From: an uncultured Clostridium sp.
GTDB lineage: Bacteria > Bacillota > Clostridia > TANB77 > CAG-508
Direction: 5' to 3'
Length of the DNA stretch: 64,000 nucleotides
NCBI GenBank assembly: GCA_947087745.1
Contig: CAMUDX010000002.1
Location: 17,151-81,150, forward strand
The notes beneath the pieces are model-generated. The model did no database searches, had not been told where the DNA came from, and was given only the letters and a program-made list of their open reading frames with translations. Shown in pieces: positions 34,988-59,589 of the stretch (its first letter is position 1; each line of letters begins with the position of its first letter). The position numbers and the translations under genes were made by a program.

Positions 34988-36202
34988 TTAAAAAATAGAG
35001 TTAATTTTTTCAATTTCTTTTTCCTTAAATTCATGAAATACACTTGTATATGTATTTAGTGTAACTTGTATATCTTTATGTCCTAATATTCTTTGTAAAA
35101 CAACTGGACTTACTCCGTTTTCAATACATCTCGTTGCAAATGTATGTCTTAACATGTGCGTATTTACTTTACTTTTTGTTATATTACATTGATATATTGT
35201 TTTAGTCTTTCTTCCACCTTTTATTCCTACCTTTTTCTTATAAACCCTAATATCTGCATTTTTGCATAATTTTTGAAATCTCGAATTGAAACTCGTAGCG
35301 TGTATAAAGTTTCCATTTTTTAAAAATAGAAAACCTCTCTTTTTATCAATTTGATATTCTACTAATTTATCGTATAAAGTATTTAGTATAGGTACATCTC
35401 TCATTCCTGCATAAGTTTTCGTTGTATTTTCTAATAAAATTCTTCCTTTATCAACATGGCTTAATGTTTTTCTTACATATATTTTTTTGTTTTCAAAATC
35501 TATATCTTCTCTTTTTAGTGCTAATATTTCACTTATTCTCATTCCTGTATATATAGCTATATAAAATACTATTGTATAATCATCATACCCTTTGTCTAAT
35601 TCTTTTATAAACCTTTCTTCCTCTTCTACTGTTAGTGCATCTATTTCTTTTGTTGGTTTACTAGATTTAGGTTTCATTATATATCCCTTTAAATCAAAAG
35701 GATTCTTATCTACTATATCTCTAATCCTTGCTTCATTAAAAGCACCTTGTAATTGTTGCCATACTTTTGTGATTACTGATTGTGAATACGAAGTAAGAGT
35801 TTGACTTTGCATATTTATTATACTTCTAGTAACATTTTGAATTGGAATATTTGCAAAAGGTAATATTTTCTTCATTATATCTATCGATTCTCCAATTCGT
35901 ATGTATGATGCTCTTTTTATAGAATTAGTATTATATTTTAGTTCTCTTATTTCTTCAGCAATATCTACTATTGATAACTTATTTGTTACATCTGTCCCAT
36001 CTTGCATTTCTCTCTGGATTTGCTCCATTTTATCTTTTACTTCTTTTCTTGTATCTCCATAAAGGCTTTTTCTTATTTGTTTTCCATTTCCATCTCTTCC
36101 TAATGTAACTTGTCCTACCCATTTCTTTGTTGCTTCTGAATAATAAATAGTTCCTTCTCCATTACCTCTTTTTCTCATTGTTCTTGCCATAATTTCCTCC
36201 AT
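34988..36202 (-). CDS. int: tyrosine site-specific integrase (Tn916/phage type, with N-terminal arm-binding domain)
   Basis: N-terminal RKRGNGEGTIYY...GRDGNGKQIRK (AP2-like arm-binding domain). Catalytic region with R...HMLRHTFATRCIENGVSPVVLQRILGHKDIQVTLNTYTSV. Confidence 0.9.
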   Translation of the reverse strand: MEEIMARTMRKRGNGEGTIYYSEATKKWVGQVTLGRDGNGKQIRKSLYGDTRKEVKDKMEQIQREMQDGTDVTNKLSIVDIAEEIRELKYNTNSIKRASYIRIGESIDIMKKILPFANIPIQNVTRSIINMQSQTLTSYSQSVITKVWQQLQGAFNEARIRDIVDKNPFDLKGYIMKPKSSKPTKEIDALTVEEEERFIKELDKGYDDYTIVFYIAIYTGMRISEILALKREDIDFENKKIYVRKTLSHVDKGRILLENTTKTYAGMRDVPILNTLYDKLVEYQIDKKRGFLFLKNGNFIHATSFNSRFQKLCKNADIRVYKKKVGIKGGRKTKTIYQCNITKSKVNTHMLRHTFATRCIENGVSPVVLQRILGHKDIQVTLNTYTSVFHEFKEKEIEKINSIF

Positions 36203-36590: not shown

Positions 36591-37346
36591 CTATTTTCTA
36601 TCTTTAACATTTTCTGCTTGTTTTTCAACTTCATCTGGAGAATATAAATCAATAAGTGTTAAGATATATTTTCCAAATTCCTCGTTTGAAATTTCCAAGT
36701 TCCCTGTATGTTTTAGATATTCTCTTGCTACCATTCCATAAGATGCAATTTGATTTCTCGTAACAAATTCTGTTTTTTCTTCTATTCCCTCTCTATGTGG
36801 CACTTCTTTTTTGATTTTCTCTAAATCTATTCCTAATGAAATAATAAGAGCTTTATCTACTTTTCTCAATTCTCCAATATCTAAAGCACCTATATAATAT
36901 TTTAATCTTGATTTGTCTATTGCTCTGATTTGTTCTGTCAAAACAAGTGAATTTTGTTTTAGTCTATCTTTATACCCTTTTATATACACATGAGTTGGTA
37001 TAATCGATTTTGAATTTACTTTACTTGTTATTGGTGCAATTATAACAGTTGGACTATGCTCATTTCCTATATTGTTTTGCAATATTACTACTGGTCTTAC
37101 TCCTGTTTGTTCACTTCCTACATAAGTTTCGTCTAAAGCTGCATAATATAAATCTCCTCTTTTAATTTCCATTTTATTTCTATTCTCCTTTTTTTCTTTA
37201 TAATTTTTCAAATATTCCATTTGTTCTTGATCTTCCATTATTTTTTCTTCTTCTGTTTTACTCATACTCGCATATAGAATCATTAAATATGTAAATATTG
37301 TGATAAGTATAAGTAGTATTAAAAATATAATTAGTAAAATATTCAT
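36591..37346 (-). CDS. PemK/MazF-domain protein with N-terminal TM helix and C-terminal extension
   Basis: The core IKRGDLYYAALDETYVGSEQTGVRPVVILQNNIGNEHSPTVIIAPITS...LVLTEQIRAIDKSRL is a classical MazF/PemK fold. It is embedded in a 251-aa protein with a hydrophobic N-terminus. No obvious MazE partner ORF is present. Confidence 0.6.
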   Translation of the reverse strand: MNILLIIFLILLILITIFTYLMILYASMSKTEEEKIMEDQEQMEYLKNYKEKKENRNKMEIKRGDLYYAALDETYVGSEQTGVRPVVILQNNIGNEHSPTVIIAPITSKVNSKSIIPTHVYIKGYKDRLKQNSLVLTEQIRAIDKSRLKYYIGALDIGELRKVDKALIISLGIDLEKIKKEVPHREGIEEKTEFVTRNQIASYGMVAREYLKHTGNLEISNEEFGKYILTLIDLYSPDEVEKQAENVKDRK

Positions 37347-37696
37347 TGTTTTATTTCTCCTTTTTTATTCAAAAAGGCTACCTTATAGATTAGATAGCCT
37401 TTTACAATTACTTTCTATCTTCTCCTAAAATTCATTAAACGGCAATTAGCTAAATTGCTCCACAGGACTTCCACCTACCTGCTTTCAACAGATTTGTTCT
37501 CAATGCGTGGGACGGTTTTATCTCGCTCGTGCTATGACTAAACAAGTGTATCATTATACCTACTACTTGTCCTCGCCTTATAAGTGGCTATCTTATATTT
37601 AAGTAAAGTAATTTGTGAGATTACTTTTTAACTAGCTCGAATAGTAGGAATGTATTTAATGAATTGTTATTTAATTTTCAAAGTTCATGTGGAATA

Positions 37697-37740
37697 AAAA
37701 TTCCTCTCATTTCTCCTGTGAAAAAATGAGAGGTTTGTAG
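37697..37740 (-). terminator. rho-independent terminator of the sigma-like gene
   Basis: 10-bp stem cctctcattt/aaatgagagg, followed on the minus strand by a T-rich run. Confidence 0.55.
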
Positions 37741-37750
37741 GATTAAATTT

Positions 37751-38275
37751 TTAAATTTTTATAAATTTTTTTAATTTTTCTAAAATTCTATCTCGTTTAT
37801 CTTGAATTGTAGTGTAATGTTTGCCTACTATTGCAGCATATTCTCGCAATGTTTTATTTTCAAAAAATAATGCTTTTATTAGTTTGTATTCTTCTTCACT
37901 TAATTGTAATAAAGCTAATCTTAATTTTTCTATTTCATTTTTTCTTTCAAAATTAGCTTCTACATTATCTATTGGATTTGAAATTATATTTTTTAATGTA
38001 GCTCCATTTTCAGTTTCATTATCATAAGAAACTAAATTCATCTTTCTTGATACTCTATCTAAATACTTCTGTCTTTGTTCCTCATACTCTATAATTTCAT
38101 AATCTTTTTTTGACACTTCTAGCAAAACATCATCCAATTTAATAAATTTTTTTTTCTTATATGTACTGTATTTTTTTCGTTTTTCTTTAAGTTCTTTATA
38201 TGTAATTTCTTCATAAATTCCTTTTTTTAATTTTATAAAACATTTTGCATTATCTTGCATTTCTCTTTCCTCCAA
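37751..38275 (-). CDS. sigma-70 region-4-containing sigma-factor-like protein (Tn916 Orf7-like)
   Basis: C-terminal LSEEEYKLIKALFFENKTLREYAAIVGKHYTTIQDKRDRILEKLKK is a sigma-70 region 4 HTH. Confidence 0.65.
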   Translation of the reverse strand: MEEREMQDNAKCFIKLKKGIYEEITYKELKEKRKKYSTYKKKKFIKLDDVLLEVSKKDYEIIEYEEQRQKYLDRVSRKMNLVSYDNETENGATLKNIISNPIDNVEANFERKNEIEKLRLALLQLSEEEYKLIKALFFENKTLREYAAIVGKHYTTIQDKRDRILEKLKKFIKI

Positions 38276-38747
38276 TCAATTCGTTTTTGTGAATTGATTG
38301 GTAGGTGGGCTACGGCAATGTTTTTCTTTTAGAGCATAAAAAAAATCAAATATACAACGCATAATTGCACATTTGATTTGAAATAGGCACAAATATCTAA
38401 TATTTACATTTTTTAATGTAAATACTTGTGAAATTACTTTTACATTTTTACTTGTACCCCTCCCCATATAAAAAACTCCTTTACAGAATAGTGCCTAAAC
38501 AAAATTCTTAAAGGAGTTTTGAATAATTAAAAAATAAATCAATACTATAATCAAAGTCTAAAATATGTACTTGTAATTATCTTGTGTTTTCTCTATATCT
38601 TTTGAATCGCCTCCCTTTTAAGACTTTGATTAAGTTGCTTGCATTATATAGAATTTTACTTTTCTAATGTCAAAAAAGGGGGAATATGGCGAAAAAGGGC
38701 GAAAAAAGGCTAAATTTTCTTTTACTATTTTTTCCATTTTGTATTGT

Positions 38748-38770
38748 GTTTACATAATTTTTATGGTATA
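38748..38770 (+). promoter_or_regulatory. candidate sigma-A promoter with extended -10 (TGGTATAAT) for the Spo0A-like gene
   Basis: TTTACA ... TGGTATAAT, about 45 bp upstream of the ATG at 38816, with an AGGAGGG RBS. Confidence 0.4.
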
Positions 38771-38815
38771 ATGTTATCGAATTTATAATATAGACATTTG
38801 TAGGAGGGTTTCCAG

Positions 38816-39535
38816 ATGCAGAAAGTCCTTATTGCTAATCCTAATGTTGAGCAAAGAATAAGGCTTTGTCAACAGCTTGCAAATGATAAAAGGTTAGAAG
38901 TAATAGAAACAGCTGATGGAAAAACTGCTTTAGAAAAATATCTTGATATTAAACCTAATGTATTAGTTTTAGATTCTTGCCTAAAAGATATAAATTGTAT
39001 TGAAATAATTGATAGATTATCTACAAATATTGCAGATAAGAAAAATAACAACATTATATTAACAGCTCAAAAAGAAGAAAATTTGAACTTGTCTAATGCT
39101 GCTAGAATATACAAGGTAATATATGATGATGAAAATTTTAATGACTTTTATAGTACAATTAACGAAATGTATCTTTTTGGAGAATATGAAGAATTAACTA
39201 ACGAGGAACTCGATTTATTATTTTTGACATTAAAAATTCCTTTAAATTCAAATGGAACTAATTACATAAGAGAAGCTATTTTTGAATGCTACTACTACCC
39301 TGACTTACAGAAAAAATTGAAAGATATTTTTACTATAATTGGACAAAGACATAACAAGCCTAATTCGGCAATACGATCAAGTTTTAGAACTGCATTAGAA
39401 CGATTAAATATGTATAGAGATACTATCAACTGCCCTATTATGCAATATTTTGATATTGAAGAAAATATAACCCCAAAAGATTTTTTAGAAATTGCAGTAA
39501 TGTATTTACATCTACAAAAAGGAAAGAAGAAATAA
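38816..39535 (+). CDS. Spo0A-like regulator (degenerate receiver domain plus Spo0A C-terminal DNA-binding domain)
   Basis: C-terminal NYIREAIFECYYYPDLQKKLKDIFTIIGQRHNKPNSAIRSSFRTALERLNMYRD...KDFLEIAV parallels the Spo0A_C signature (YLREAI...LYP.IA...T...VERAIRHAIE...PTNSEFIA). The N-terminal REC-like fold lacks the canonical acidic pocket (ANPN). Confidence 0.55.
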   Translation: MQKVLIANPNVEQRIRLCQQLANDKRLEVIETADGKTALEKYLDIKPNVLVLDSCLKDINCIEIIDRLSTNIADKKNNNIILTAQKEENLNLSNAARIYKVIYDDENFNDFYSTINEMYLFGEYEELTNEELDLLFLTLKIPLNSNGTNYIREAIFECYYYPDLQKKLKDIFTIIGQRHNKPNSAIRSSFRTALERLNMYRDTINCPIMQYFDIEENITPKDFLEIAVMYLHLQKGKKK

Positions 39536-39567
39536 GTTTTGTAAAAACCTATTCCTTCTTTTTTAGT

Positions 39568-40758
39568 TTATGCGTTCTCTTTTAATTCTTTATACCCTTG
39601 CATTATATTGTCTATTTCCATATTGTTTATTGGCTCTGATACAAATGTATTCAAATTTCTTCCCATTAGATTATATGCTGTTTTCATATATTCATCACTA
39701 ACATTATCACTTGTAATTATATTGAATATTGGCACATTATCTTTTAAACTTTTTTTTGATTTCCTCATTATTTCCATACTGTCCATATTGTCTAAATTCA
39801 TTTTTGCAAAAACCATTTCTGGCTTTGATTCTATAATTTTGTTATATGTTTCTTTTCCGTCTGCTGCTGTGTCTACTAATTCAACATAGTCTAAACCTTT
39901 TATTGTATCTGCTATTTTATTTCTTATTTCTTCGTTATTATGGGCAATTAGAATCTTTATCTTTTTCATTCTATTCTCCTCTAATTCATACATAAATTCT
40001 ACTGGATTTTGGTATAGTGCATTTCCCTTTTTTACATCTACACCATGTTCCGTTTTTATTATATCTCCATTTGCTATTAGCAAAGTATATTTATCTTCCA
40101 TGTCCTTTTCTTGTCTAAAGTCTGTTTCTCCTATATTTCCAAAATTTCTAAATACATTTTTAGTTTGCTCAAATTCTGTGTCTGTTATTGCAAATTCGTC
40201 TTTATTTTTCTCTGCTGTTTCTCGAAGTGGCATAAATTTAAAGAACTTCCACTTGCTAATATTATAATTGTTTAGGAACTCTCCTAGCTGCTCCATTTCA
40301 TTTATATTTTTCTTGCTAACTACTGTATTTATATTTACTTTAAGATTTTTGTCTTTAACATAGTCTAGTATAACTTTAACCTCTTCAAAATGATTTCTAC
40401 CTCTTCCTAGTTCTTCATTTGTATCATCATTTATTGTATCTAATGACAATGTCAAAGAATCTAAATAATCTAAAATCTCTCGCATATTTTCATTTTGTGC
40501 TAGTACCATTCCGTTTGTTATCAATTTATTCTTTATTCCATTTTCTTTTGATATTTTTAATAGTTCTTTTAAGTTTGGATATAGTAGTGCTTCTCCCCCT
40601 GTCCAAGTAATGTTGTTTACTCCATCTTTAATCAAATTATTTAATATCTCTTTATTTTCTTCATAAGTAAGATCGTTAATACCTAAAAATCTGTGGCAAT
40701 ATTTACAATTTTGATTACATTTTGTTGTAATATTCCAACAAACTCTCTTTTTTTGCAT
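39568..40758 (-). CDS. radical SAM enzyme fused to a C-terminal (pseudo-)receiver domain
   Basis: N-terminal CNQNCKYC (CxxxCxxC) with GGEALL. The C-terminal ~120 aa show a REC-like pattern (KIKILIAHNNEEI...MVFAKMNL...IITSDN) in which the phospho-acceptor Asp appears replaced. Confidence 0.65.
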   Translation of the reverse strand: MQKKRVCWNITTKCNQNCKYCHRFLGINDLTYEENKEILNNLIKDGVNNITWTGGEALLYPNLKELLKISKENGIKNKLITNGMVLAQNENMREILDYLDSLTLSLDTINDDTNEELGRGRNHFEEVKVILDYVKDKNLKVNINTVVSKKNINEMEQLGEFLNNYNISKWKFFKFMPLRETAEKNKDEFAITDTEFEQTKNVFRNFGNIGETDFRQEKDMEDKYTLLIANGDIIKTEHGVDVKKGNALYQNPVEFMYELEENRMKKIKILIAHNNEEIRNKIADTIKGLDYVELVDTAADGKETYNKIIESKPEMVFAKMNLDNMDSMEIMRKSKKSLKDNVPIFNIITSDNVSDEYMKTAYNLMGRNLNTFVSEPINNMEIDNIMQGYKELKENA

Positions 40759-40867
40759 TTTTAACCTCTCTCTTTCTTTGAAATTGATACATGAATATTA
40801 TATCTTGTAAGATTTTTCCTGTCTATTCTCAAATTTTTAATCGCTATTAAATATTTTTTAACGCAAA

Positions 40868-40905
40868 AAAAGAATACCCCTTGTTTTAAGGATATTCTAC
40901 CTATC
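40868..40905 (-). terminator. rho-independent terminator of the LysR gene
   Basis: agaata..tattct hairpin followed by TTTTTTT on the minus strand. Confidence 0.5.
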
Positions 40906-40921
40906 TTTTCATATTCGTTTA

Positions 40922-41815
40922 TTACTTATTTTTTAAGTATTTCTTTATAAATTTTTTATCTACTTGTGTTAGCATATCTTTTATATATACTAAATTTATA
41001 CTCAACTCTGGCAATTCTATTGGCAATTCAACTTCGTATAATTCTCCATTTTCTAATTGCTTCTTGACAGCTTCTTTCATTACATAAGCTATTCCTAATC
41101 CATTCATTACAGCTTCTACTCTTATTTCTGTTGTATCACATTTCATATTTGGTTTTATTTTTATTTTGTGTTCTTTTAGAACTTTAAATAAATTTTTAGT
41201 AGAATTTGTATTGTCAAAATTTAATATATATCGTAAATCTTCTAGTTCTTTTACATCTTCAATTTTTAGTGGCTCTTTCGCAACAAATATATTGCTTACT
41301 TTCTTTAATTCTTCTATTACAATTCCATCTGTTTCTGTTGGTATAACATCTGTTATTACAAAATCCAATTTATGATTCTTTAACATCTCAAACATTTCAT
41401 TTGGAACTGCACCACAAGTTAACTCTACATTTAAGTTTGGATAATCATTTTTAGCTGCTTTTATATATTCCATTAAGTAATAGTTCGTTAAGTGTGATTG
41501 ACACCCTATATTTACTGTGCCATTAGCTAAATCATTTTTTTCTTTTATTACTTTTTCTGCAAAATCAAATGAAGAAATACTTTTATTTACAATTTCAAAT
41601 AATTGCTTTCCCTCTTCTGTTAATTTTACTCCATCATTTTCTCTATTAAATAGTTTTACATCTAGTTGTTTTTCTAAATTTTTTATCTGTGTACTAATAT
41701 TAGCTGAAGTAAAACCTAGTTTTTCGCCTGCTTCTGCATAACTTTTAGAATTTGCTACTGCACAAAATATTCTATACAGATTATAATTTATGTTAGACAT
41801 AATAGCACCTCTCAA
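40922..41815 (-). CDS. LysR-family transcriptional regulator
   Basis: N-terminal HTH (YAEAGEKLGFTSANISTQIKNLEKQLDVKLF) and a C-terminal substrate-binding domain. Confidence 0.85.
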   Translation of the reverse strand: MRGAIMSNINYNLYRIFCAVANSKSYAEAGEKLGFTSANISTQIKNLEKQLDVKLFNRENDGVKLTEEGKQLFEIVNKSISSFDFAEKVIKEKNDLANGTVNIGCQSHLTNYYLMEYIKAAKNDYPNLNVELTCGAVPNEMFEMLKNHKLDFVITDVIPTETDGIVIEELKKVSNIFVAKEPLKIEDVKELEDLRYILNFDNTNSTKNLFKVLKEHKIKIKPNMKCDTTEIRVEAVMNGLGIAYVMKEAVKKQLENGELYEVELPIELPELSINLVYIKDMLTQVDKKFIKKYLKNK

Positions 41816-41887: not shown

Positions 41888-42946
41888 TTATTTGTTATTT
41901 TGTTTTGAATATAATAAATCTGCTTTTCTAATATCAAACTTTGTTCCAATTTTTAGGTTAAGTGTTTTTACAAATTCTATTAGCTGTTCTATATTTTGTT
42001 CTGCATTTTCTACTTTCTTTACTTCTAGCTCTATAAATATTCCTAAATCTTTAACATCTTGAATATATGCTATAAACTCATCATTCTCATACATATAATT
42101 TTTATCAATCATATTTAAAAATCTTGTATAACCTAATATATTCAAATGCTTTTCTGCTTCTTCTATGCTCATAACTTTTAATACAGACTTTTCTGTACTT
42201 ATCTCAAACCCATTGCTATTATGATTTCTTCTTTTACAAACTATCTTTTTGTCATCTTCATTAACATATCTAATAATTAGTGTATCTGTAATTCTTCCAT
42301 TTTTAGGTGCAAATTCATTAGTTCTATCATTTTTCATATATATATCATCTAATGTAAATTCTTCTATATATTTGAATCCTTTTTCTTCTAAAACTTTAAC
42401 AATAGTTGATATTTCTTCAAAGACTTCACAAGTTATTTCTATATCTTTTATAAACTTTGTTTCTTTTTTATCACTATCATATATTCCTACTTTTTCTTCT
42501 AATAGTTTAAAATTACAACTTATATCCACAAAAAATTTCTTTTTATCTACTGTTACCATTTTATATAATTTCTTTGCCACATTTCTTATTTTTTCTGTAT
42601 TTTGTTGTATAAAATTGTTTTGTGCCATTAACAAGTTTTTATATTTAATATCTTTAATTAAATTAAAATCTATTGGTGTTAGTACATCTCCTACAACTGG
42701 AATCATATTATTGAATCTAATAATTCCATAGTCTTGTCCTATTTTTATGTATGTTGGATTATCACTATATTTTTTGTGTGTACTTTTAGGCGAGAATAAA
42801 GGTGCAAAATATTTGATATTATCTATCTCAATAATAACACCTATATATGGTCTTTTTTGATTTTTATTGTATGGAACTTTATCATCAAATTGATATAAAT
42901 AATCAATATATTTATCATCTATGTTATAAAATTTTAATCTATCCAT
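41888..42946 (-). CDS. type III toxin-antitoxin ToxN/AbiQ-family endoribonuclease fused to a C-terminal CYTH-like domain
   Basis: Residues 1-~160 align with AbiQ/ToxN (KFYNIDDKYIDYLYQFDDKVP...YIGVIIEIDNIKYFAPLFSPK...CNFKLLEEK vs AbiQ KFYTISSKYIEYLKEFDDKVP...FIGIVLEIQGHKYLAPLTSPK...CDFSLLEEK). The following ~190 aa have a CYTH/CyaB-like pattern (LIIRYV...KRR...E...LGYTRF...DLGIFIELEV). Start at MDRLKFYN, with an AAGGAGAG RBS. Confidence 0.7.
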   Translation of the reverse strand: MDRLKFYNIDDKYIDYLYQFDDKVPYNKNQKRPYIGVIIEIDNIKYFAPLFSPKSTHKKYSDNPTYIKIGQDYGIIRFNNMIPVVGDVLTPIDFNLIKDIKYKNLLMAQNNFIQQNTEKIRNVAKKLYKMVTVDKKKFFVDISCNFKLLEEKVGIYDSDKKETKFIKDIEITCEVFEEISTIVKVLEEKGFKYIEEFTLDDIYMKNDRTNEFAPKNGRITDTLIIRYVNEDDKKIVCKRRNHNSNGFEISTEKSVLKVMSIEEAEKHLNILGYTRFLNMIDKNYMYENDEFIAYIQDVKDLGIFIELEVKKVENAEQNIEQLIEFVKTLNLKIGTKFDIRKADLLYSKQNNK

Positions 42947-42965
42947 ATTCTCTCCTTTAACAAAA

Positions 42966-43000
42966 ATTGTGGGATGCTTATATAAAAACACCCCACATAG
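42966..43000 (-). terminator. hairpin between the ToxI-like repeats and the toxin gene (attenuator/terminator typical of type III TA loci)
   Basis: tgtggg(a)tg...ca(c)cccaca imperfect inverted repeat, placed exactly where ToxIN and AbiQ loci carry a terminator. Confidence 0.5.
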
Positions 43001-43007
43001 TTTTTAT

Positions 43008-43116
43008 CGCTTACTTAGGGCTAAGCTACTCCCATTTTTTATCTTCACTTAGGGCTTGAATACTCCCATTTTTTATTGTCAACTTTTGGCTTGACTACTC
43101 CCATTTGAAAATATTT
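43008..43116 (-). ncRNA. ToxI-like antitoxin RNA: three tandem ~36-nt repeats upstream of the ToxN-family gene
   Basis: Direct repeats ttacttagggctaagctactcccattttttatc / ttcacttagggcttgaatactcccattttttattgtc / aacttttggcttgactactcccatttgaaaatattt, with no interspersed spacers. Confidence 0.65.
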
Positions 43117-43141
43117 GCATATTTTCTTTGTTAGTATATTC

Positions 43142-43170
43142 ATTATACACTATTTTTATGCTATTGTCAA
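43142..43170 (-). promoter_or_regulatory. consensus sigma-70 promoter (TTGACA-17-TATAAT) driving the ToxI-like repeats and the toxin
   Basis: The minus strand reads TTGACAatagcataaaaatagtgTATAAT, about 25 nt upstream of the first repeat. Confidence 0.7.
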
Positions 43171-43227: not shown

Positions 43228-44742
43228 TTATCTGTCTATATCATCCATAGAACTACTTTTATCAATTTGATGTAATTGTTCTAATTGTTTTTCTGTAATA
43301 TTTATTACTTTACCACAACAAGGTTTAAAATCTTTATTTCCATAAACGAGCCAAATAATATTTTCTCTTTTTAGATCTTCCTTTGGCATAGTTCCAGGAC
43401 AAGGATAACCATCAGTAAAAACAATTTTGTTTATTTCTCTTTTTTTAGTAAATGATCTAACTGCTAAATCCCAATCTTCTGTCCATGCTGAATGTCCTCT
43501 AGCTCCTCTAGGTATAGTAAAATTATCTATGTCTTTTACATTTTTTATATCTACAAGTCCCCAAAATTGCTCATTAAAGCATCCTACTCTTAGTTTTGAT
43601 TGTTCTAATAATGGTTTTAGTTGCCTTAGAAATGATTTTACTAATTCTAAATCTACTGAGCCAGAAACATCAATCATAACTTCTGTTTCAGCTTCATCTT
43701 CAATATCATTTTCTTCTAATCTATATGCATAATTATTTTCTGCAATAGAACGCCTTTGACTCCAAATTGTTTCTGTTTTTTCTACTTCTCTTCGTAATAA
43801 AAGTTTCCAATCAATTTCTTCTTTACTTTTTCCTATATCCCCTAATTCTATTGTTCCTTTATCGGTACTTCGTATATCTTTTTCAGTCTTTTCGCGTCTA
43901 GATTTGAATTTTTCTCGTTTTTCTTTTCTATTATCTTCAAATTCTCCTTTTTCATCAAAATCTATATCTGTATGTTCTTCTCCAGTTTGCTCTTGTTCTT
44001 GTCCCTGTTCTTGTTTTTGCGAATTTTCATCTTGCCTTTGTCCTTTCTTTTGAGAATTTTGCTGCTCTTTAAATGCTTCTTCCCATAAACTATGGTCATC
44101 TCCTTGACTTTTACTTTTATCTGAATTTTGATTTTCAGTTTGCTCCGCATTTTCATTATTACTATCTTGTTCTTGATTTTGCTCATTGCCTTGTTTATTA
44201 TCTTGTTCATCGCTCTGTCCACTTCCTTGCTGATTATCTTGCTCTTGTTCTTGTCCATCTCCTTGTTCTTGGTCTTGGTTTTGATTTTGATTATTCTTTT
44301 GCTCTTGTTCTTTCTTTTCTTTTTCTTGCAATAATTTTTGATAAAATTCTTCTGCTGAATAATCTAGTGCTTCTGGCATGTTTACATATCCTTCTTTAAT
44401 TGTAAATCCATCTCTTTCTAAATTTGCATTTATAATAGCATCAGTTGCTATATTCCAAAGTTCTGGATCTCTTTTTACTCCACTTTTATCCTTTAATCTA
44501 TACATGTGCATAAATTTTATATGCATTATTTCATGTGCTATTGTAAATAATCTATCATTCTCACTTAAACTTGCAAAATAGTTAGGATCAACATATATAT
44601 TTTTTCCATCAGTTGCTGCTGTATGATATTTCAAGTTGTCTTTAAATTCAATATTAGCTACTGCTATTTCACTACCAAATCTAGGATATTTTGCTAGCAT
44701 TTTCCTTTTTGCATCATAAATCAAATCTGTATTAGCACTCAT
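43228..44742 (-). CDS. DUF2201-type protein: N-terminal putative metallopeptidase (HExxH) domain, acidic Q/E/K-rich linker, C-terminal VWA-like domain
   Basis: TIAHEIMHIKFMH (HExxH) in the N domain; a long low-complexity QEQEQ/KEKREK linker; a C-terminal VWA-like region (MIDVSGSVD). This is the usual partner of MoxR/AAA_5 ATPases. Confidence 0.7.
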   Translation of the reverse strand: MSANTDLIYDAKRKMLAKYPRFGSEIAVANIEFKDNLKYHTAATDGKNIYVDPNYFASLSENDRLFTIAHEIMHIKFMHMYRLKDKSGVKRDPELWNIATDAIINANLERDGFTIKEGYVNMPEALDYSAEEFYQKLLQEKEKKEQEQKNNQNQNQDQEQGDGQEQEQDNQQGSGQSDEQDNKQGNEQNQEQDSNNENAEQTENQNSDKSKSQGDDHSLWEEAFKEQQNSQKKGQRQDENSQKQEQGQEQEQTGEEHTDIDFDEKGEFEDNRKEKREKFKSRREKTEKDIRSTDKGTIELGDIGKSKEEIDWKLLLRREVEKTETIWSQRRSIAENNYAYRLEENDIEDEAETEVMIDVSGSVDLELVKSFLRQLKPLLEQSKLRVGCFNEQFWGLVDIKNVKDIDNFTIPRGARGHSAWTEDWDLAVRSFTKKREINKIVFTDGYPCPGTMPKEDLKRENIIWLVYGNKDFKPCCGKVINITEKQLEQLHQIDKSSSMDDIDR

Positions 44743-44792: not shown

Positions 44793-47018
44793 TTATTCTC
44801 TTTCATGTTCTTCATTCATAACTTCTTTAGAAACTCTTGTTAAATACGAACTATACATTTGTCCTATATCTGTATATGCTGCTATTCCATCTTTTGCATA
44901 TTCTTCTGTTTCTTTTCCTGTATGTAATGCTAAAGACATTTCTTGCAGTTCACTTATTTTCTCCATCTTTCTTTCATCATTTCCAGCCCAATATATATCA
45001 TATATTGATAAATATTCTGGATCACAATGTTTTCTTATGAATTCTCTACAACTTTCTACTTGTGTTTCATCTGCTGTTATCAATGCTGTCATATATGCAA
45101 ATCTTTCGCTTATATCTCTTGGTAAGTCTGCTTGTGTATATCCTTCTCCCATTCCTTTTGTTACTTCTTCTGGAGTCAATGTTGGAAGGTTATAAAAATC
45201 AAAAAATTCTGCTGACCATTCTTCTCTAAGTTTTGAGCTTATTGACCTTTGGATTATATCTTCTACATCTTTTCCTTCATATTTTCCTTGTTCCAAATTT
45301 CTTTCAAAATTATATAAGGTATTTGAAATTGATGTCCAACCACGAGGATCGTTTGTTCTTCCTTTACATCCATTTCTATCTAAATGTTCTTCTCCTACAT
45401 CTGGCTCTTCGTAGAAATATCCTATGTCTTGTATATCTTCGCTTTTTCCAGAATTGTTGTATTTTGATAACATATATCCTATTACTGATGGGTGTATTTT
45501 TTGTGGAATTGCATATTCTGTTATCCATTCTCCTACTTTTGGCTCCATATCTAGGATATGGTCAAATCTTTTTTCTAGTGGCTCTGCTAAATCTTCTGCT
45601 ACACTTGAATATTTCTTTTGGTTTCCTGTTGCTACAACTACTACATTGTCTGGTAATTTTAGTCCTTTTCCTATCTCTACCATTCTATTTAATACTAATG
45701 TATATACTAAACTTTGAACTGCTGGTTTTACATTTAAAAGCTCATCTAACATTATTACAACTTTTTTATCGCTTTCTTTTGACCTTTCATATACTGTATC
45801 TGCTACATCATATATATTTTGTATATTTTCTTCAACTAATTTTCTTTCTTCTTCTGTTGCTTCTTGCATAATAGCTGTTTTTGCAAAGTCTGGTGGTATG
45901 CTTTGTCCTGTTTGTAAATTTACTGATCCTACCACTTTTTCTGGGAACATGTTATTTGTTAATTTCATATAAATTAAGTCTGGATATAATGTTTTTATTC
46001 TTTCTGTTTTTCCTATTCCAGATGGTCCTCTTAATAATACTGACTCTCCTGCTTCAATCCAATTTTGTATTATTTCTGTATCTGTCATTCTGCTTCTATC
46101 AGCAGTTTTTGTTTTGTCTGGATTTAATTTTTGTAATCTAGATTTTCTTGGCTTAAATTCTTCTGTTTCTTCTGTTTGCTCTCCTAATGTTATTGTACCT
46201 CTTGATTGTTCTAAATCTCTTGCCAAATATCTATCCATAAATGTTTTTATATCTGTTTTATCAAAATCTCTTGTATGATAATTACTCTCTTTATTAAATT
46301 GAACTCCTGCAAATATTAGTTTTTCAGTTATCATCATACGAGATTTTTCATCTACAATCCATTTAACTGGAGAAACTTCTATCCATACATTATCTCCATC
46401 TTTATATTGTTCTCCATTTGAAAGTGTAAAGTTACTTCCATCATAATATGAATTAGCTTCAACTCTTACATATCTTTTTCCATTATATTCATATTCTTGA
46501 TGAGTTTGTGGCTCAAATGTTGTATCATATTCAGTGTATCGTGTTGAATCTGTTGTATAACTATTTCTTGTTTTTGAAAGTCTGCCACTTTTATATTCTC
46601 TTTCTAATTTTTCTTGCATCTCTTTTGATACTGCTTTTTGTGGATAATATCCATACTCTACTTCAAGAATACCATCTCTTGCTCTTTTCCCACTCTCTCC
46701 GTTCGTGGGGATATTAGAGATTGATGAGAACGGCAAAGCTGGGCGAGCCCCACCATTGCGAGTGTTAACATTGTAGTAATCGCTATCACCACTATCGTAA
46801 ACCACGCGCGCGTCATTATCTCCGTCATCTGACTTTGTCCAATACCAACCTGTTCTCCCCTCTAAAGAACTATCATTATCTACATGATAATCAGAAACCC
46901 ATCCACCAAGCAATACAGAAAAATCTGTTATGGCTGCCTGTGTTCCTCTTTTTTCTAATATATCTAATTTATCATTACCAAAGCATTGTTCTTCGGTTAA
47001 AAAAGTAAAATTACTCAT
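44793..47018 (-). CDS. DGR target protein 1: N-terminal C-type-lectin/DUF1566-like variable domain (contains VR1) fused to a MoxR/AAA_5-type AAA+ ATPase
   Basis: VR1 (46739-46816) encodes residues ~68-93. The upstream segment (LTEEQ...GRTGWYWTKSDD...ARVV...RNGGARPAL) resembles short CLec/DUF1566 folds. Walker A VLLRGPSGIGKTERI, Walker B VVIMLDELLN and an AAA_5-like sensor region. No signal peptide. Confidence 0.8.
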   Translation of the reverse strand: MSNFTFLTEEQCFGNDKLDILEKRGTQAAITDFSVLLGGWVSDYHVDNDSSLEGRTGWYWTKSDDGDNDARVVYDSGDSDYYNVNTRNGGARPALPFSSISNIPTNGESGKRARDGILEVEYGYYPQKAVSKEMQEKLEREYKSGRLSKTRNSYTTDSTRYTEYDTTFEPQTHQEYEYNGKRYVRVEANSYYDGSNFTLSNGEQYKDGDNVWIEVSPVKWIVDEKSRMMITEKLIFAGVQFNKESNYHTRDFDKTDIKTFMDRYLARDLEQSRGTITLGEQTEETEEFKPRKSRLQKLNPDKTKTADRSRMTDTEIIQNWIEAGESVLLRGPSGIGKTERIKTLYPDLIYMKLTNNMFPEKVVGSVNLQTGQSIPPDFAKTAIMQEATEEERKLVEENIQNIYDVADTVYERSKESDKKVVIMLDELLNVKPAVQSLVYTLVLNRMVEIGKGLKLPDNVVVVATGNQKKYSSVAEDLAEPLEKRFDHILDMEPKVGEWITEYAIPQKIHPSVIGYMLSKYNNSGKSEDIQDIGYFYEEPDVGEEHLDRNGCKGRTNDPRGWTSISNTLYNFERNLEQGKYEGKDVEDIIQRSISSKLREEWSAEFFDFYNLPTLTPEEVTKGMGEGYTQADLPRDISERFAYMTALITADETQVESCREFIRKHCDPEYLSIYDIYWAGNDERKMEKISELQEMSLALHTGKETEEYAKDGIAAYTDIGQMYSSYLTRVSKEVMNEEHERE
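46739..46816 (-). other. DGR variable repeat VR1
   Basis: 78 bp; 70/78 identical to the TR. All 8 mismatches fall at TR positions that are A on the coding (minus) strand. Flanked by GC-rich clamps (gacgcgcgcgtgg ... ggtggggctcgcccag). Confidence 0.9.
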
Positions 47019-47424: not shown

Positions 47425-47901
47425 TTAAATTTTATCCCCTTTCGTAATACTAAAAAAACTCAATATTTTATTAAGAAACTTTTTTAATATATTTTCTTTT
47501 TTATATTCTACTATATTTTTTTCTATCACATTTTCATTTTGAATTATTTTATTTTCTTTTTTGTTTTTAAAAATATCATTTACATTATATGTTTCTTTTA
47601 TTTTTTCTTTTTTCATATTGTTTTCATGTATTATATTTTTATATTTTTCATGTTCTTCTTTATTACACCACCATGTAATATATATAAAGCCTAAAAGTTC
47701 TTTAGTTTGTTTTCTTAAATTAAAGCCATTGATTGGCTGTTCATGATTAAATTTAGATTTATAGCTTTTACTTGAAATATCAGTTAAAAACTTTATAAAA
47801 CTTTGTGGTATTCTTGCAACATCTTCTTTATTTGTATGATTTAGTATGTCTAATACTTCAACTGCTGCTTCACTATATTCAGCTTCTCTCATTTTCTTCA
47901 C
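47425..47901 (-). CDS. hypothetical protein (158 aa) between the two DGR target genes
   Basis: ORF only; its start overlaps the end of target gene 2 by 23 nt. Confidence 0.35.
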   Translation of the reverse strand: MKKMREAEYSEAAVEVLDILNHTNKEDVARIPQSFIKFLTDISSKSYKSKFNHEQPINGFNLRKQTKELLGFIYITWWCNKEEHEKYKNIIHENNMKKEKIKETYNVNDIFKNKKENKIIQNENVIEKNIVEYKKENILKKFLNKILSFFSITKGDKI

Positions 47902-50110
47902 TCCTAACTTCTTCTTTAGAATCTCTTGTTAAATACGAACTATACATTTGTCCTATATCTGTATATGCTGCTATTCCATCTTTTGCATATTCTTCTGTTT
48001 CTTTTCCTGTATGTAATGCTAAAGACATTTCTTGCAGTTCACTTATTTTCTCCATCTTTCTTTCATCATTTCCAGCCCAATATATATCATATATTGATAA
48101 ATATTCTGGATCACAATGTTTTCTTATGAATTCTCTACAACTTTCTACTTGTGTTTCATCTGCTGTTATCAATGCTGTCATATATGCAAATCTTTCGCTT
48201 ATATCTCTTGGTAAGTCTGCTTGTGTATATCCTTCTCCCATTCCTTTTGTTACTTCTTCTGGAGTCAATGTTGGAAGGTTATAAAAATCAAAAAATTCTG
48301 CTGACCATTCTTCTCTAAGTTTTGAGCTTATTGACCTTTGGATTATATCTTCTACATCTTTTCCTTCATATTTTCCTTGTTCCAAATTTCTTTCAAAATT
48401 ATATAAGGTATTTGAAATTGATGTCCAACCACGAGGATCGTTTGTTCTTCCTTTACATCCATTTCTATCTAAATGTTCTTCTCCTACATCTGGCTCTTCG
48501 TAGAAATATCCTATGTCTTGTATATCTTCGCTTTTTCCAGAATTGTTGTATTTTGATAACATATATCCTATTACTGATGGGTGTATTTTTTGTGGAATTG
48601 CATATTCTGTTATCCATTCTCCTACTTTTGGCTCCATATCTAGGATATGGTCAAATCTTTTTTCTAGTGGCTCTGCTAAATCTTCTGCTACACTTGAATA
48701 TTTCTTTTGGTTTCCTGTTGCTACAACTACTACATTGTCTGGTAATTTTAGTCCTTTTCCTATCTCTACCATTCTATTTAATACTAATGTATATACTAAA
48801 CTTTGAACTGCTGGTTTTACATTTAAAAGCTCATCTAACATTATTACAACTTTTTTATCGCTTTCTTTTGACCTTTCATATACTGTATCTGCTACATCAT
48901 ATATATTTTGTATATTTTCTTCAACTAATTTTCTTTCTTCTTCTGTTGCTTCTTGCATAATAGCTGTTTTTGCAAAGTCTGGTGGTATGCTTTGTCCTGT
49001 TTGTAAATTTACTGATCCTACCACTTTTTCTGGGAACATGTTATTTGTTAATTTCATATAAATTAAGTCTGGATATAATGTTTTTATTCTTTCTGTTTTT
49101 CCTATTCCAGATGGTCCTCTTAATAATACTGACTCTCCTGCTTCAATCCAATTTTGTATTATTTCTGTATCTGTCATTCTGCTTCTATCAGCAGTTTTTG
49201 TTTTGTCTGGATTTAATTTTTGTAATCTAGATTTTCTTGGCTTAAATTCTTCTGTTTCTTCTGTTTGTTCTCCTAAAGTTATTGTACCTCTTGACTGTTC
49301 TAAATCTCTTGACAAGTATCTATCCATAAATGTTTTTATATCTGTTTTATCAAAGTCTTTGGTATGGTAATCTCTAGTATGATTAAATTGTACTCCAGAG
49401 AATATCAATTTATCTGTTAGCATGACTTTTTCTCTTTCATCAACTAACCATTTTACAGGAGAAACTTCTACCCATACATTATCTCCATCTCTGTATTGTT
49501 CTCCATTTGAAAGTGTAAATCTATTTCCTCCAAAATCTGAATTAGCTTCAACTCTTACATATCTTTTACCATTATATTCATATTCTTCATGTTGTTTTGC
49601 TAAAAATTTTTCGCCATAAGCATCATATTTTCTTGAATCTGTTGTATAACTATTTCTTGTTTTGGATATACTACCACTTCTATATGCTCTTTCTAGTCTT
49701 TCTTGCATGTCTTTTGATGCTGCTTTTTGTGGGTAATATCCATACTCTACTTCAAGAATACCATCTCTTGCTCTTTTCCCACTCTCTCCGTTCGTGGGGA
49801 TATTAGAGATTGATGAGAACGGCAAAGCTGGGCGAGCCCCACCATCGCGAGTGAGAACATGGGAGCAATGCCTATGACCATTATCGTTAACCACGCGCGC
49901 GTCATTATCTCCATCATCTGATTTTGTCCAATAATATCCTGTTCTTCCCTCCAAAGAACTATCATTATCTATATGATTGTTGTCAGAAACATAAGCACCT
50001 AAAAGAATAGAGAAATCTGTTATTGCTGCTTTTGTTCCTCTCTTCTCTAATATATCTAATTTATCACTTCCAAAATATTGTTCTTCGGTTAAAAAAGTAA
50101 AATTACTCAT
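47879..50110 (-). CDS. DGR target protein 2 (paralog of 44793..47018; contains VR2)
   Basis: Same architecture as target 1. VR2 encodes ...DARVVNDNGHRHCSHVLTRDGGARP..., versus TR-encoded DARVVNDNGNRNYNNVNKRNGGARP. Confidence 0.8.
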   Translation of the reverse strand: MSNFTFLTEEQYFGSDKLDILEKRGTKAAITDFSILLGAYVSDNNHIDNDSSLEGRTGYYWTKSDDGDNDARVVNDNGHRHCSHVLTRDGGARPALPFSSISNIPTNGESGKRARDGILEVEYGYYPQKAASKDMQERLERAYRSGSISKTRNSYTTDSRKYDAYGEKFLAKQHEEYEYNGKRYVRVEANSDFGGNRFTLSNGEQYRDGDNVWVEVSPVKWLVDEREKVMLTDKLIFSGVQFNHTRDYHTKDFDKTDIKTFMDRYLSRDLEQSRGTITLGEQTEETEEFKPRKSRLQKLNPDKTKTADRSRMTDTEIIQNWIEAGESVLLRGPSGIGKTERIKTLYPDLIYMKLTNNMFPEKVVGSVNLQTGQSIPPDFAKTAIMQEATEEERKLVEENIQNIYDVADTVYERSKESDKKVVIMLDELLNVKPAVQSLVYTLVLNRMVEIGKGLKLPDNVVVVATGNQKKYSSVAEDLAEPLEKRFDHILDMEPKVGEWITEYAIPQKIHPSVIGYMLSKYNNSGKSEDIQDIGYFYEEPDVGEEHLDRNGCKGRTNDPRGWTSISNTLYNFERNLEQGKYEGKDVEDIIQRSISSKLREEWSAEFFDFYNLPTLTPEEVTKGMGEGYTQADLPRDISERFAYMTALITADETQVESCREFIRKHCDPEYLSIYDIYWAGNDERKMEKISELQEMSLALHTGKETEEYAKDGIAAYTDIGQMYSSYLTRDSKEEVRSEENERS
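47905..49320. repeat. ~1.4-kb segment 100% identical to 44819-46230 (tandem duplication / gene conversion between the two DGR target genes); approximate extent
   Basis: Identical antisense ORF pairs (44837..45040 = 47926..48129; 45233..45871 = 48322..48960; 45881..46141 = 48970..49230) and identical C-terminal ~480 aa of the two target proteins. The N-terminal ~260 aa are only ~75% identical. Confidence 0.85.
49828..49905 (-). other. DGR variable repeat VR2
   Basis: 78 bp; 12 mismatches to the TR, all at TR coding-strand adenines; same GC-rich flanks as VR1. Confidence 0.9.
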
Positions 50111-59500: not shown

Positions 59501-59589
59501 ATTGCCTTAATAGGAATGGCATCTTGCACACTTCGTGGTATGACAAACTTTTCTTTGTCTTGTTTGAATAATTTATTTAATGTTTTCAA
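56509..59589 (-). CDS. VirB4-family conjugative transfer ATPase (Tn916 Orf16/TcpF-like), in-frame with a C-terminal TM segment and a sortase B-like domain
   Basis: Walker A GVSGSGKS, Walker B FIFIDEIY. After ~780 aa comes a TM stretch, then a sortase signature (YPIMQ...VIYGHHM...TLSTCEY...R). An internal GTG with a GGAGAGGG RBS at ~57237 could start a separate srtB-like gene. Confidence 0.7.
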   Translation of the reverse strand: MKTLNKLFKQDKEKFVIPRSVQDAIPIKAIWEDGIFFIGKNKYSKCYKFSDINYAVASRDDKEAMFLEYSELLNSFDTGATTKITIINRRLNKIDFEETMLLPMENDELDKFRKEYNKMLLDKATASNGIIQEKFITISVDKKSIEEAKNYFARVGTDLINHFKELGSICIELDAVERLRIFHDFYRVGEETSFNFDMITNMRKGHSFKDFICPDSMEFESDYFKIGNRYGRVIFLKEYASYIKDSMVAELTDINKNMMMSIDVIPIPMDEAVREAENRRLGIETNITNWQRRQNANNNFSAIIPYDMEQQREQSKEFLDDLITRDQRMFISVLTMVHTAESKEELDNDTEALLTIARKHLCQFGVLKFQQLDGLNTAMPFGVRKIDTLRTLTTESLAVFMPFRVQEIRHENGIYYGQNVISKNMIIADRKQLLNGNSFILGVSGSGKSFIAKEEIVSIMLKDPNADVIIVDPEREASSLVKSLGGEVIKISATSGNHINAMDMNKDYGDGANPIILKSEFILSLCEQLVGSNNLGAKQKSIIDRCTASVYRYYQQGNYQGTPPTLQDFYEELLKQQEPEAKEIALAIELFVNGSLNTFAKPTNVDTHNRLVCYDILDLGKQLLPIGMLVVLDSILNRITMNRSKGRNTFIFIDEIYLLFQYEYSANFLFTLWKRVRKYGAYCTGITQNVEDMLQSHTARTMLANSELIIMLNQASTDRVELAKLLNISDLQMSYITNVNAGEGLIKIGSSLIPFVNRFPRNTELYKLMTTKPRRGCRIVKKILYVFCIMLLISSILISSYCIYKELKQNKEQENNFEELIEIVEQTNPEDKKQEETVINIDNLYAINSDIVGWLKINDTTINYPIMQTKSNPNYYLHRDFYKKYSSYGTPYMSEECNINTSDNLVIYGHHMNHKKVFGALENYKSKEFYENHKIIDFTTLEEMKKYEIFAVFKTVVYSKNTFKYYNFVNFSNEDEFNTFVNKCKELSFYETNIKPKYHDKFITLSTCEYSNKNGRLVVIAREINN

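Follow-up and report, generated by a model that had tools for sequence, protein, structure and literature searches.

Prokaryotic viperins (pVips) are said, in the 2021 work of Bernheim and colleagues, to be radical S-adenosylmethionine (SAM) enzymes that dehydrate nucleotides. They are usually treated as single-gene enzymes, sometimes accompanied by a kinase, and without dedicated regulation. Adjacency to a kinase is a known hallmark of prokaryotic viperins, and there are reports of eukaryotic viperins that carry a fused "triphosphatase or cyclase domain". In atypical response regulators, e.g., BldM-WhiI in Streptomyces, the Asp/Lys chemistry has been lost, and pairing of receivers or ligand binding is thought to take its place. 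Mobile elements of the Tn916 type contain a region with the sigma-like gene orf7, the small helix-turn-helix gene orf8, xis/int, and a cargo slot for genes such as tet(M). Here, a locus with likenesses to all three is described. It lies in a stretch of 64,000 nt (the window) from an uncultured Clostridium sp. (GTDB lineage Bacteria; Bacillota; Clostridia; TANB77; CAG-508), i.e., positions 17,151-81,150 of the forward strand of contig CAMUDX010000002.1 (assembly GCA_947087745.1). A block of three open reading frames (ORFs) in this window encodes a Spo0A-like regulator of 239 aa, a viperin-like radical SAM protein of 396 aa with a C-terminal pseudo-receiver, and a LysR-type regulator of 297 aa. 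The ORFs lie exactly where the first-pass annotation had placed them, and all coordinates are given in Table 1. We propose, tentatively and with a confidence just short of even, that the block is a regulated, nucleotide-modifying cargo module of a Tn916-like integrative and conjugative element (ICE) of gut Clostridia, which has a role in defence and is docked to the ICE regulator via its receiver.

The 396-aa protein was matched by the Pfam family Radical_SAM (E = 7e-25, aa 9-162). It contains the cluster motif C14-x3-C18-x2-C21 and a GGE motif at positions 54-56, both of which are near-invariant across the clade. The NCBIfam model NF038283 ("viperin_w_prok", viperin family antiviral radical SAM protein) matched aa 5-254 with 136.5 bits (E = 1e-39), and the cutoff of this model is 180 bits. 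The pVip hidden Markov model (HMM) of PADLOC, for which no curated cutoff is shown, was covered over its whole length with 150 bits (E = 2e-44). Viperin-like enzymes and viperin also led the sequence search of the PDB. The AlphaFold model of the protein, based on a 7-sequence alignment (pLDDT 85), has the viperin-type partial barrel with the closing C-terminal extension. The top 18 Foldseek matches of this model were all viperins or viperin-like enzymes (TMt 0.68-0.73). The best match was 6q2p, mouse viperin with bound CTP (E = 5e-15, TM 0.70), and the viperin-like enzyme of T. virens was also among the best fold matches. "RWK"-type and "NTVV" motifs could be aligned between the 396-aa protein and viperin-like enzymes.

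Directly before the cluster, the signature of the clade is V-C-W-N-I-T, versus V-N-Y-H-F-T in the crystal structure 9dfu of a viperin-like enzyme, the H of which stems from the engineered change F40H. C7 and W8 are conserved in at least 90% of the clade members. The motif N-(aromatic)-H at this position is what we take, from the literature on viperin-like enzymes, to be the viperin signature. Near the other end of the domain, G245-N246 is invariant in the clade, and its distance from the C-terminus fits the Asn of the beta-8 loop that is conserved in prokaryotic viperins and stabilises the base (Shomar et al., bioRxiv 10.1101/2023.09.13.557418). As judged from these sequence and profile comparisons, the enzyme belongs to a viperin-like sister clade of the prokaryotic viperins that is sub-threshold for the curated family, and this clade probably acts on nucleoside triphosphates (NTPs). 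The first-pass annotation of this DNA had named a small-molecule- or peptide-modifying radical SAM enzyme as an example and had advised a search for a precursor-peptide ORF in its vicinity. A peptide-modifying enzyme is not supported. SPASM families matched the protein solely in the radical-SAM core (up to aa ~230), and a SPASM/twitch enzyme or a maturase of ribosomally synthesised, post-translationally modified peptides was rejected, because the C-terminus has a receiver fold and the intergenic gaps of the block (32, 163, and 72 bp) are too short for a precursor gene.

The homologue search covered 1.8 billion representatives of 50%-identity clusters. Most homologues are stand-alone enzymes of 250-290 aa, and fusions are few. 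Stand-alone relatives from Bacilli and from an alphaproteobacterial metagenome-assembled genome (MAG) are 52% and 41% identical to the window enzyme, respectively. Fusions of the radical-SAM domain with a receiver-like domain make up a handful of clusters (P0121 and P0122, as well as P0137 and P0168, which lack the three cluster cysteines), and they are thus as rare as had been noted before. Further architectures were seen. Radical-SAM::LysR fusions of 561-564 aa were represented by P0174, P0181, P0210, and P0239 (loci L091-L093), and P0123, P0240, and P0190 represent the other architectures of the enzyme clade. In a rough neighbour-joining tree, a fusion of the radical-SAM domain with a PfkB-type kinase is nested within the receiver-fused clade. 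An HxGH nucleotidyltransferase::radical SAM protein and a protein of 651 aa, the long N-terminus of which is membrane-like, also belong to the enzyme clade.

The C-terminal domain of the 396-aa protein is, by profile and model, a genuine pseudo-receiver, because receiver profile matches, a (beta-alpha)5 model, and degenerate catalytic positions coincide. The Pfam family Response_reg matched aa 269-382 with 27.2 bits, just under the gathering threshold of 30.2 bits. A profile built from 10 diverse copies of the domain matched 70 receiver structures in the PDB, including SLN1 (4e-8), VraR (2e-7), CheY, and Spo0A. In the AlphaFold model, aa 267-395 adopt the (beta-alpha)5 fold with a pLDDT of about 90, and a disordered linker (258-263) precedes the domain. 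The alignments revealed that the D-D-D-T-K quintet has been lost: H273/N274 occupy the positions of the acidic pair, K319 replaces the phospho-acceptor Asp, and E375 replaces the Lys, while T349 stands at the Thr position, which is not conserved among the homologues. The acceptor position is K or R in nine of ten homologues, E in the remaining one, and D in none. The earlier observation of a CxxxCxxC radical SAM protein with a receiver-like C-terminus and a substituted acceptor was thus correct. The two receiver-like domains of the window share 27% identity (E = 9e-7). A stand-alone receiver of sister ICEs (L099-101), in which DD, D, T, and K are intact, is 31% identical to the domain on the enzyme (E = 3e-8) and occupies the same convergent position as the enzyme gene in the window. 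The stand-alone pseudo-receiver homologues P0165 and P0266 were set aside as evolutionary intermediates, since they stem from low-coverage contigs of 1.2-2.9 kb and resemble split or fragmentary genes.

The convergent neighbour, the 239-aa protein, had been described as a degenerate receiver joined to a Spo0A-type DNA-binding domain, and this description held. Pfam yielded Response_reg with 29.6 bits (gathering threshold 30.2) and Spo0A_C with 25.2 bits (gathering threshold 25). As a single sequence, the Spo0A_C-like half gave no significant match in the PDB, and the family profile was needed; it matched the DNA-binding structures of Spo0A 1lq1 (1.5e-5) and 1fc3 (4e-5) as well as Spo0A receivers. 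The N-terminal half of the AlphaFold model was matched with isolated receivers by Foldseek (TM 0.83-0.85). The motif "IANPNV" places N8/P9 at the acidic pair, and alignment with canonical sister sequences places D105 at the conserved Lys position; D53 and T83 are retained. The position of the acceptor D53 is Asn in two of seven relatives. TIGR02875, the model for genuine Spo0A, scored 32.1 bits versus a cutoff of 200 bits, and the putative recognition helix "IRSSFRTAL" is presumably unlike that of Spo0A. The 239-aa protein probably has another DNA specificity than Spo0A. The receiver residues are canonical in sister Spo0A-like proteins and degenerate in the window lineage and in L089.

The block is located on an ICE, as had been assumed before, with the tyrosine integrase on one side of the block and conjugation-type genes past it, namely those for a CHAP hydrolase and for a VirB4/TraG-type ATPase that carries a sortase domain. 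The first 34 kb of the window contain chromosomal genes (FtsK, MutL, RecG). Related ICE contexts were gathered by searching with the most distant Spo0A-like partner. As these contexts showed, the gene for the Spo0A-like response regulator belongs to the backbone of an ICE family with the order recombinase, small ORFs, HTH_16, and sigma-region-4-like gene, then the divergent Spo0A-like gene and a variable slot. The divergent pair of sigma-like and Spo0A-like genes is present also in the sister ICEs. The variable slot contained BREX (PglZ and an MmeI-type methylase) in L105-107, a HinfI restriction-modification system in L102-104, a DNA methylase in L095-98, and the canonical stand-alone receiver followed by a reverse-transcriptase locus in L099-101. 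The latter locus (L099-L101, ~7200-9400) comprises an RVT_1 reverse transcriptase, a bAvd-like accessory protein, and two small ORFs with MutS_I domains; a diversity-generating retroelement and a reverse transcriptase that acts in defence are both conceivable. A 144-aa ORF after the Spo0A-like gene in L095-98 was rejected as a receiver candidate because it is not receiver-like.

Every gene for the receiver-fused enzyme that was found directly adjoins a Spo0A-like gene, in two arrangements. It is convergent and downstream of the Spo0A-like gene in the window, L001-L016, L019, L089, and L094, and it is divergent and upstream, inside the regulatory region, in L090 and L102-103; in L102, the gene lies between the sigma-like and the Spo0A-like genes and encodes a version without the cluster cysteines. 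The module is always found at the recombinase end of the element. Spo0A-like genes, in turn, do not always adjoin a fused enzyme: many of those on ICEs have no such neighbour, and even ICEs with 88%-identical Spo0A-like proteins differ in its presence or absence. The dependency is asymmetric because the fused enzyme is always found beside a Spo0A-like gene and not vice versa, and the fused enzyme looks like an accessory that was plugged into a pre-existing regulator. The earlier suggestion of a joint action of the two receiver-like proteins thus gains support from the adjacency in all cases found; however, the Spo0A-like protein, as a backbone gene of the ICE, is not a dedicated target of the enzyme. 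The module is common in gut metagenomes: the exact 239-aa sequence was found on 974 public contigs, and more than 120 near-identical protein clusters exist. The hosts of the module are Clostridia MAGs.

The enzyme has two recurrent partners, a LysR-type regulator and a CYTH domain. The 297-aa protein was matched by HTH_1 (63.8 bits) and LysR_substrate (86.7 bits), both above the gathering thresholds. The presence of a LysR gene in the block had been noted before, but its link to the enzyme proved to be closer than was held then, as relatives are radical-SAM::LysR fusions: the window protein is 35% identical to the LysR half of the fusion P0174 (E = 2e-43). The LysR gene has been kept upstream of every catalytically intact receiver-fused enzyme gene. 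The second partner, which was absent from the first-pass annotation, is a CYTH-like domain that in the window is fused to the neighbouring ToxN/AbiQ toxin. A profile of this domain matched the CYTH structures 2een (1.7e-5), 1yem, 7ns8, 3n0y, and 2fjt, class IV cyclases included, and the cyaB HMM gave 33.7 bits with the toxin fusion. E138/E140 are invariant, and the N-terminal motif is E-I-T-x-(E/K), with Thr for the second Glu of ExExK. The Pfam family CYTH did not match the window copy and matched the partners in L017, L018, L020, and L091.

The Clostridia loci with the receiver fusion have the order [ToxN-]CYTH-like, LysR, enzyme, and Spo0A-like gene, and the order CYTH, LysR, and fused enzyme was retained in 7 diverged loci. 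LysR and CYTH genes stand beside catalytically intact enzymes and are absent beside versions without the cysteines. ORFs upstream of LysR in L012 and upstream of the enzyme in L089 were rejected as CYTH candidates (hhalign probability <1%). In the loci of the radical-SAM::LysR fusions the CYTH gene stops 2 nt before the enzyme gene. The operon of the stand-alone relatives in L017 (3982-10793), L018 (2565-10280), and L020 (4819-10722) is tight, with overlapping stops and starts, and has the order nucleotide kinase, GreA-like, U32-family, methyltransferase, enzyme, (methyltransferase), and CYTH. The GreA-like protein is a GreA/GreB-like factor, and the U32-family protein has 627-693 aa. L020 adds an MBL-fold hydrolase and adjoins an integrase, L017 adds a pyridoxal phosphate (PLP) decarboxylase, and a HAD phosphatase is present in L018 and, as a partial ORF of 143 aa, in L017. 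In the Bacilli loci L017 and L018, a LysR homologue is encoded 5-6 kb upstream; none was detected in L020. The operon may lead to a nucleotide analogue that bears more modifications, and a speculative role of the Gre-like factor would be to free the RNA polymerase of the host when a chain terminator has stalled it.

The pattern scan revealed terminators after toxN::CYTH and after lysR, suggesting that toxN::CYTH, lysR, and the enzyme gene are separate transcription units. The enzyme gene has a promoter of its own (TAGACA-17-TATAAT). The lysR terminator, AATAG at the -35 position, and TATAAT are invariant in 9 loci, the proteins of which are just 46-56% identical, and these elements are a decent candidate for the footprint of a regulated enzyme promoter. 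An AT-rich dyad (TTAAA-N5-TTTAA) upstream of the promoter fits T-N11-A, a pattern that is easily matched by chance at 26% GC. In L013 (6387-7848), a MazF-like ORF and two fragments resembling the C-terminus of LysR were found between the LysR and enzyme genes, and this junction looks rearranged.

Comparison with relatives of 96-98% identity yielded dN/dS values of 0.065-0.07 for the window enzyme gene overall and of 0.05-0.18 by domain; thus, it is under strong purifying selection in both domains. This selection and the wide occurrence of the exact 239-aa sequence mark the genes of the block as real. Versions without the three cysteines and GGE are encoded by full-length genes in L089 (4217-5395), L090 (4095-5312), and L102 (2568-3785). 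They adjoin a Spo0A-like gene and restriction-modification systems (MmeI-type, HinfI). Two Cys-less relatives that were tested had no NF038283 match at 1e-20. Also in this case selection was evident, with dN/dS values of 0.18 and 0.17 in the two halves at a dS of about 0.45, and the Spo0A-like partner of the L090/L102-type ICE was present on more than 130 contigs. The Cys-less protein looks like a selected viperin-fold pseudoenzyme: both of its halves are under purifying selection, and therefore the dead viperin-like fold appears to be kept for something.

Table 1. Positions of the features of the locus and its surroundings in the window.
Feature	Position (nt)	Strand	Evidence
Tyrosine integrase; ICE end beside the cargo block	34988-36202	-	domain search, gene context
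Backbone regulator of the ICE, sigma-70 region-4-like; divergent from the Spo0A-like gene	37751-38275	-	domain searches
Spo0A-like regulator, 239 aa; receiver aa 1-122, Spo0A_C aa ~130-228; convergent with the enzyme gene	38816-39535	+	Pfam, profile, AlphaFold
18-pair hairpin between the convergent stop codons	39523-39561		pattern scan; the same hairpin is a weak Rfam match
Viperin-like radical SAM protein fused to pseudo-receiver, 396 aa	39568-40758	-	Pfam, NCBIfam, PADLOC, PDB searches, AlphaFold, Foldseek
Pseudo-receiver (receiver-like), aa 264-396	39571-39969	-	Pfam, family profile, AlphaFold, alignments
Viperin-like radical-SAM domain, aa 5-257	39988-40746	-	NF038283, PADLOC pVip, Foldseek, motifs
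lysR terminator-like hairpin (40871-40898) and enzyme promoter (40797-40825)	40797-40898	-	pattern scan
LysR-type regulator, 297 aa; next gene upstream of the enzyme gene	40922-41815	-	Pfam
Fusion of ToxN/AbiQ endoribonuclease toxin (aa 19-172; nt 42476-42937) with CYTH-like triphosphate-tunnel domain (aa ~185-363; nt 41903-42439)	41888-42991	-	Pfam, PADLOC, NCBIfam, profile
Attenuator-like hairpin, overlaps the toxin start codon	42968-42997	-	pattern scan
12/12 consensus promoter (43142-43170), then 35-nt repeat x3.1 (43001-43106)	43001-43170	-	repeat and pattern scans

In the reading favoured here, the module would operate in two layers. In the chemical layer, the viperin-like enzyme would most likely convert an NTP to a dehydrated analogue of the ddhNTP type, the CYTH domain would cleave or process the triphosphate (product maturation, detoxification, or cyclisation), and LysR would gate or activate the promoter of the enzyme gene, with a nucleotide-like compound as its probable effector. 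That LysR is fused to the enzyme elsewhere would make sense because LysR would answer to a related small molecule. In the coupling layer, the dead receiver of the enzyme would pair with the receiver of the Spo0A-like master regulator, and the state of the enzyme would be linked to ICE transcription via a protein-protein contact that replaces phosphotransfer. The domain identities, the gene order, the separate transcription units suggested by the scan, the lost catalytic residues, and the purifying selection are observations; the reaction chemistry, the roles of CYTH and LysR, the contact of the receivers, and the defence phenotype are inferred. The module would serve to protect the cell that bears the ICE from phage or competing elements; defence is regarded as the most likely role because the slot holds BREX, restriction-modification, and AbiQ systems and because AbiQ and MazF toxins flank the module. 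Several observations weigh against this reading. Not only the window enzyme, but also eight of eight tested intact clade relatives (118-148 bits) score below the NF038283 cutoff, and C-W-N replaces N-x-H before the cluster, so that the substrate or product may differ from ddhNTP. The radical-SAM::LysR relatives are found amid chromosomal metabolic genes, outside defence islands, and CYTH is missing in L012 and L015. The adjacency to the Spo0A-like gene could partly reflect a cargo hotspot instead of a physical partnership, and the selected Cys-less versions are not explained by a purely enzymatic defence role. The latter versions, with both domains under purifying selection and one of them (L102) inside the regulatory region, would fit better to an accessory of the ICE life cycle. 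In this case a receiver-like adaptor, with the viperin-like domain as its ligand sensor (for an NTP, a modified nucleotide, or SAM), would tune the Spo0A-like regulator and thereby the sigma-like and recombinase genes, timing excision or transfer. Such an accessory is the main rival reading, although we consider it unlikely. The Spo0A-like gene is a backbone gene that is divergent from the sigma-like, HTH_16, and recombinase genes in all sister ICEs, the module invariably resides at the recombinase end, and in the window lineage both receivers lack the phospho-chemistry that is canonical elsewhere. However, the absence of the gene from ICEs with 88%-identical Spo0A-like proteins shows that the ICE cycle does not depend on it, the radical-SAM motifs are all retained in the window enzyme under purifying selection (dN/dS 0.05-0.07), and the CYTH and LysR companions point to real chemistry.

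The module could also be a small biosynthetic or metabolic unit that makes or salvages a modified nucleoside or nucleotide under the control of LysR, the receiver fusion and the Spo0A-like adjacency being incidental. The operons of the 52%-identical stand-alone relatives with kinase, U32, two methyltransferases, CYTH, HAD phosphatase, and PLP decarboxylase are in line with this, as are the radical-SAM::LysR fusions beside an ABC transporter and dehydrogenases and the PfkB-kinase fusion nested in the receiver-fused clade. The window module, however, contains neither tailoring enzymes nor a kinase, its receiver-like domain is conserved (dN/dS 0.07-0.18) and always encoded beside a Spo0A-like gene in two arrangements, and the ICE slot is otherwise filled by defence genes. 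We regard this reading as improbable. A still more distant prospect is the original suggestion that a peptide- or small-molecule-modifying radical SAM enzyme controls a Spo0A-like factor that reprogrammes sporulation or stationary-phase genes of the host. The homology of the C-terminal domain to Spo0A_C, the occurrence in Clostridia MAGs, and the phospho-competent receivers of sister-ICE Spo0A-like proteins, which could in principle be addressed by host kinases, would be compatible with it. It is very improbable in view of a viperin-like enzyme that lacks a precursor ORF as well as SPASM/twitch and peptide-recognition domains, and of 32 bits with TIGR02875 versus a cutoff of 200; no host sporulation gene was linked to the module, and no evidence for a role in host sporulation was found. 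Lastly, the viperin fold, catalytic in the window and a selected pseudoenzyme in sister ICEs, might have been co-opted as a signalling device that senses or makes a modified nucleotide and relays this via the dead receiver to the Spo0A-like master regulator, an idea that we hold to be rather doubtful. If it were true, a conjugative element would read phage infection or nucleotide stress and answer by defence or escape, and the viperin-like enzyme, CYTH, and LysR would form an unrecognised nucleotide-signal pathway, the product of which would be read by the effector domain of LysR.

Two toxin loci neighbour the block, a type III toxin-antitoxin system of the AbiQ type and a gene for a MazF toxin. 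The toxin half of the ToxN-CYTH fusion was matched by Pfam ToxN (E = 2e-44) and PADLOC AbiQ (E = 1.5e-46). The array of 35-nt repeats behind the consensus sigma-70 promoter looks like an antitoxin RNA of the ToxI/antiQ type. In L010, ToxN and the CYTH-like protein have a gene each. The fusion of a type III toxin with a triphosphate-tunnel domain seems to be undescribed. The MazF/PemK gene (36591-37346) encodes a protein with a transmembrane helix at its N-terminus, a charged linker, the toxin domain (aa 62-171), and a C-terminal extension of about 80 aa. It lies without an obvious adjacent antitoxin gene and has counterparts of 57-60% identity in L011, L012, and L015; upstream of it, a stretch of 400 bp (37347-37750) is devoid of an ORF or an Rfam match.

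The divergent promoter region common to the Spo0A-like and sigma-like genes contains four phased copies (~10 bp) of AAAAAGGGCG (38673-38714), about 100 bp 5' of the Spo0A-like start codon, which may be a binding array for a regulator. An extended -10 element (TGGTATAAT) is present at 38765-38773. The hairpin between the convergent stop codons of the Spo0A-like and enzyme genes is likely to be a bidirectional terminator. Rfam gave no match over the block at gathering thresholds, the sole weak match being this hairpin, and a known RNA or riboswitch in the block was thus rejected. Megablast against phage and plasmid collections was also without a match, the trio being found on just one IMG/VR contig, and a phage or plasmid origin of the block was rejected on the basis of these searches. 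Further downstream, two tandem paralogues of 741 and 743 aa (44793-47018 and 47879-50110) encode AAA_5/MoxR-like ATPases that are 100% identical over aa ~260-720, with diverged N-terminal regions of about 260 aa. They adjoin a DUF2201 metallopeptidase/VWA gene (43228-44742), and the pair looks like a recent gene duplication with a diversifying N-terminal module. The VirB4/TraG-type conjugation ATPase and its C-terminal sortase domain are encoded by a single ORF of 1026 aa (56509-59589).

Full-text literature searches for viperins or pVips with a receiver domain, LysR, CYTH, or a pseudo-receiver yielded nothing relevant, the sole related statement being that on the eukaryotic fusions with a triphosphatase or cyclase. 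All parts of the locus are of known kinds; their combination, i.e., a viperin-like enzyme with LysR and CYTH, the fusion to a pseudo-receiver, the tether to an ICE master regulator, and selected pseudoenzymes, appears to be undescribed. The clade sets itself apart by its own regulators, a receiver-like adaptor beside the ICE master regulator, selected dead versions, and its abundance. If the coupling were true, this would be the first viperin-type enzyme integrated into the transcriptional circuit of a mobile element, and it would open a route to new nucleotide analogues, made by viperin-like enzymes with CYTH or with U32 proteins and methyltransferases. The transition from canonical to degenerate receivers offers a natural series for the study of phosphorylation-independent two-component parts.

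With Spo0A, the 239-aa protein shares the architecture of receiver and Spo0A_C, and its profile matched structures of both Spo0A domains. In contrast to Spo0A, it remains far below the family cutoff, has lost the acidic pair and the Lys, and serves as an ICE backbone regulator. As in response regulators of the BldM-WhiI type, the receiver folds of the window lack the Asp/Lys chemistry; here, however, an enzyme bears one of the receivers at its C-terminus, while the other is part of an ICE-encoded DNA binder of the Spo0A_C type, and their pairing is predicted. The ICE resembles Tn916 in having a sigma-region-4-like gene, a small helix-turn-helix gene, and a recombinase at one end, adjoining a variable cargo slot. 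It differs in the Spo0A-like response regulator at the position of the divergent regulator and in the defence-type cargo (BREX, restriction-modification, AbiQ, viperin-like). AbiQ/antiQ and ToxIN are resembled by a ToxN-family toxin behind a strong promoter, about three 35-nt repeats, and a hairpin, whereas the C-terminal CYTH-like domain, elsewhere the partner of the viperin-like enzyme, is a difference. Finally, pVips and viperin (RSAD2) have in common with the window enzyme the partial-barrel radical-SAM fold with its C-terminal extension, CxxxCxxC, and GGE, and pVips also relatives beside nucleotide kinases, a setting among defence genes, and perhaps the Asn of the beta-8 loop. The window clade is distinguished from pVips by 136 instead of 180 bits, "CWN" for "NYH", and a near-invariant Cys7, as well as by the pseudo-receiver fusion, the dedicated LysR and CYTH partners, and the Cys-less members.

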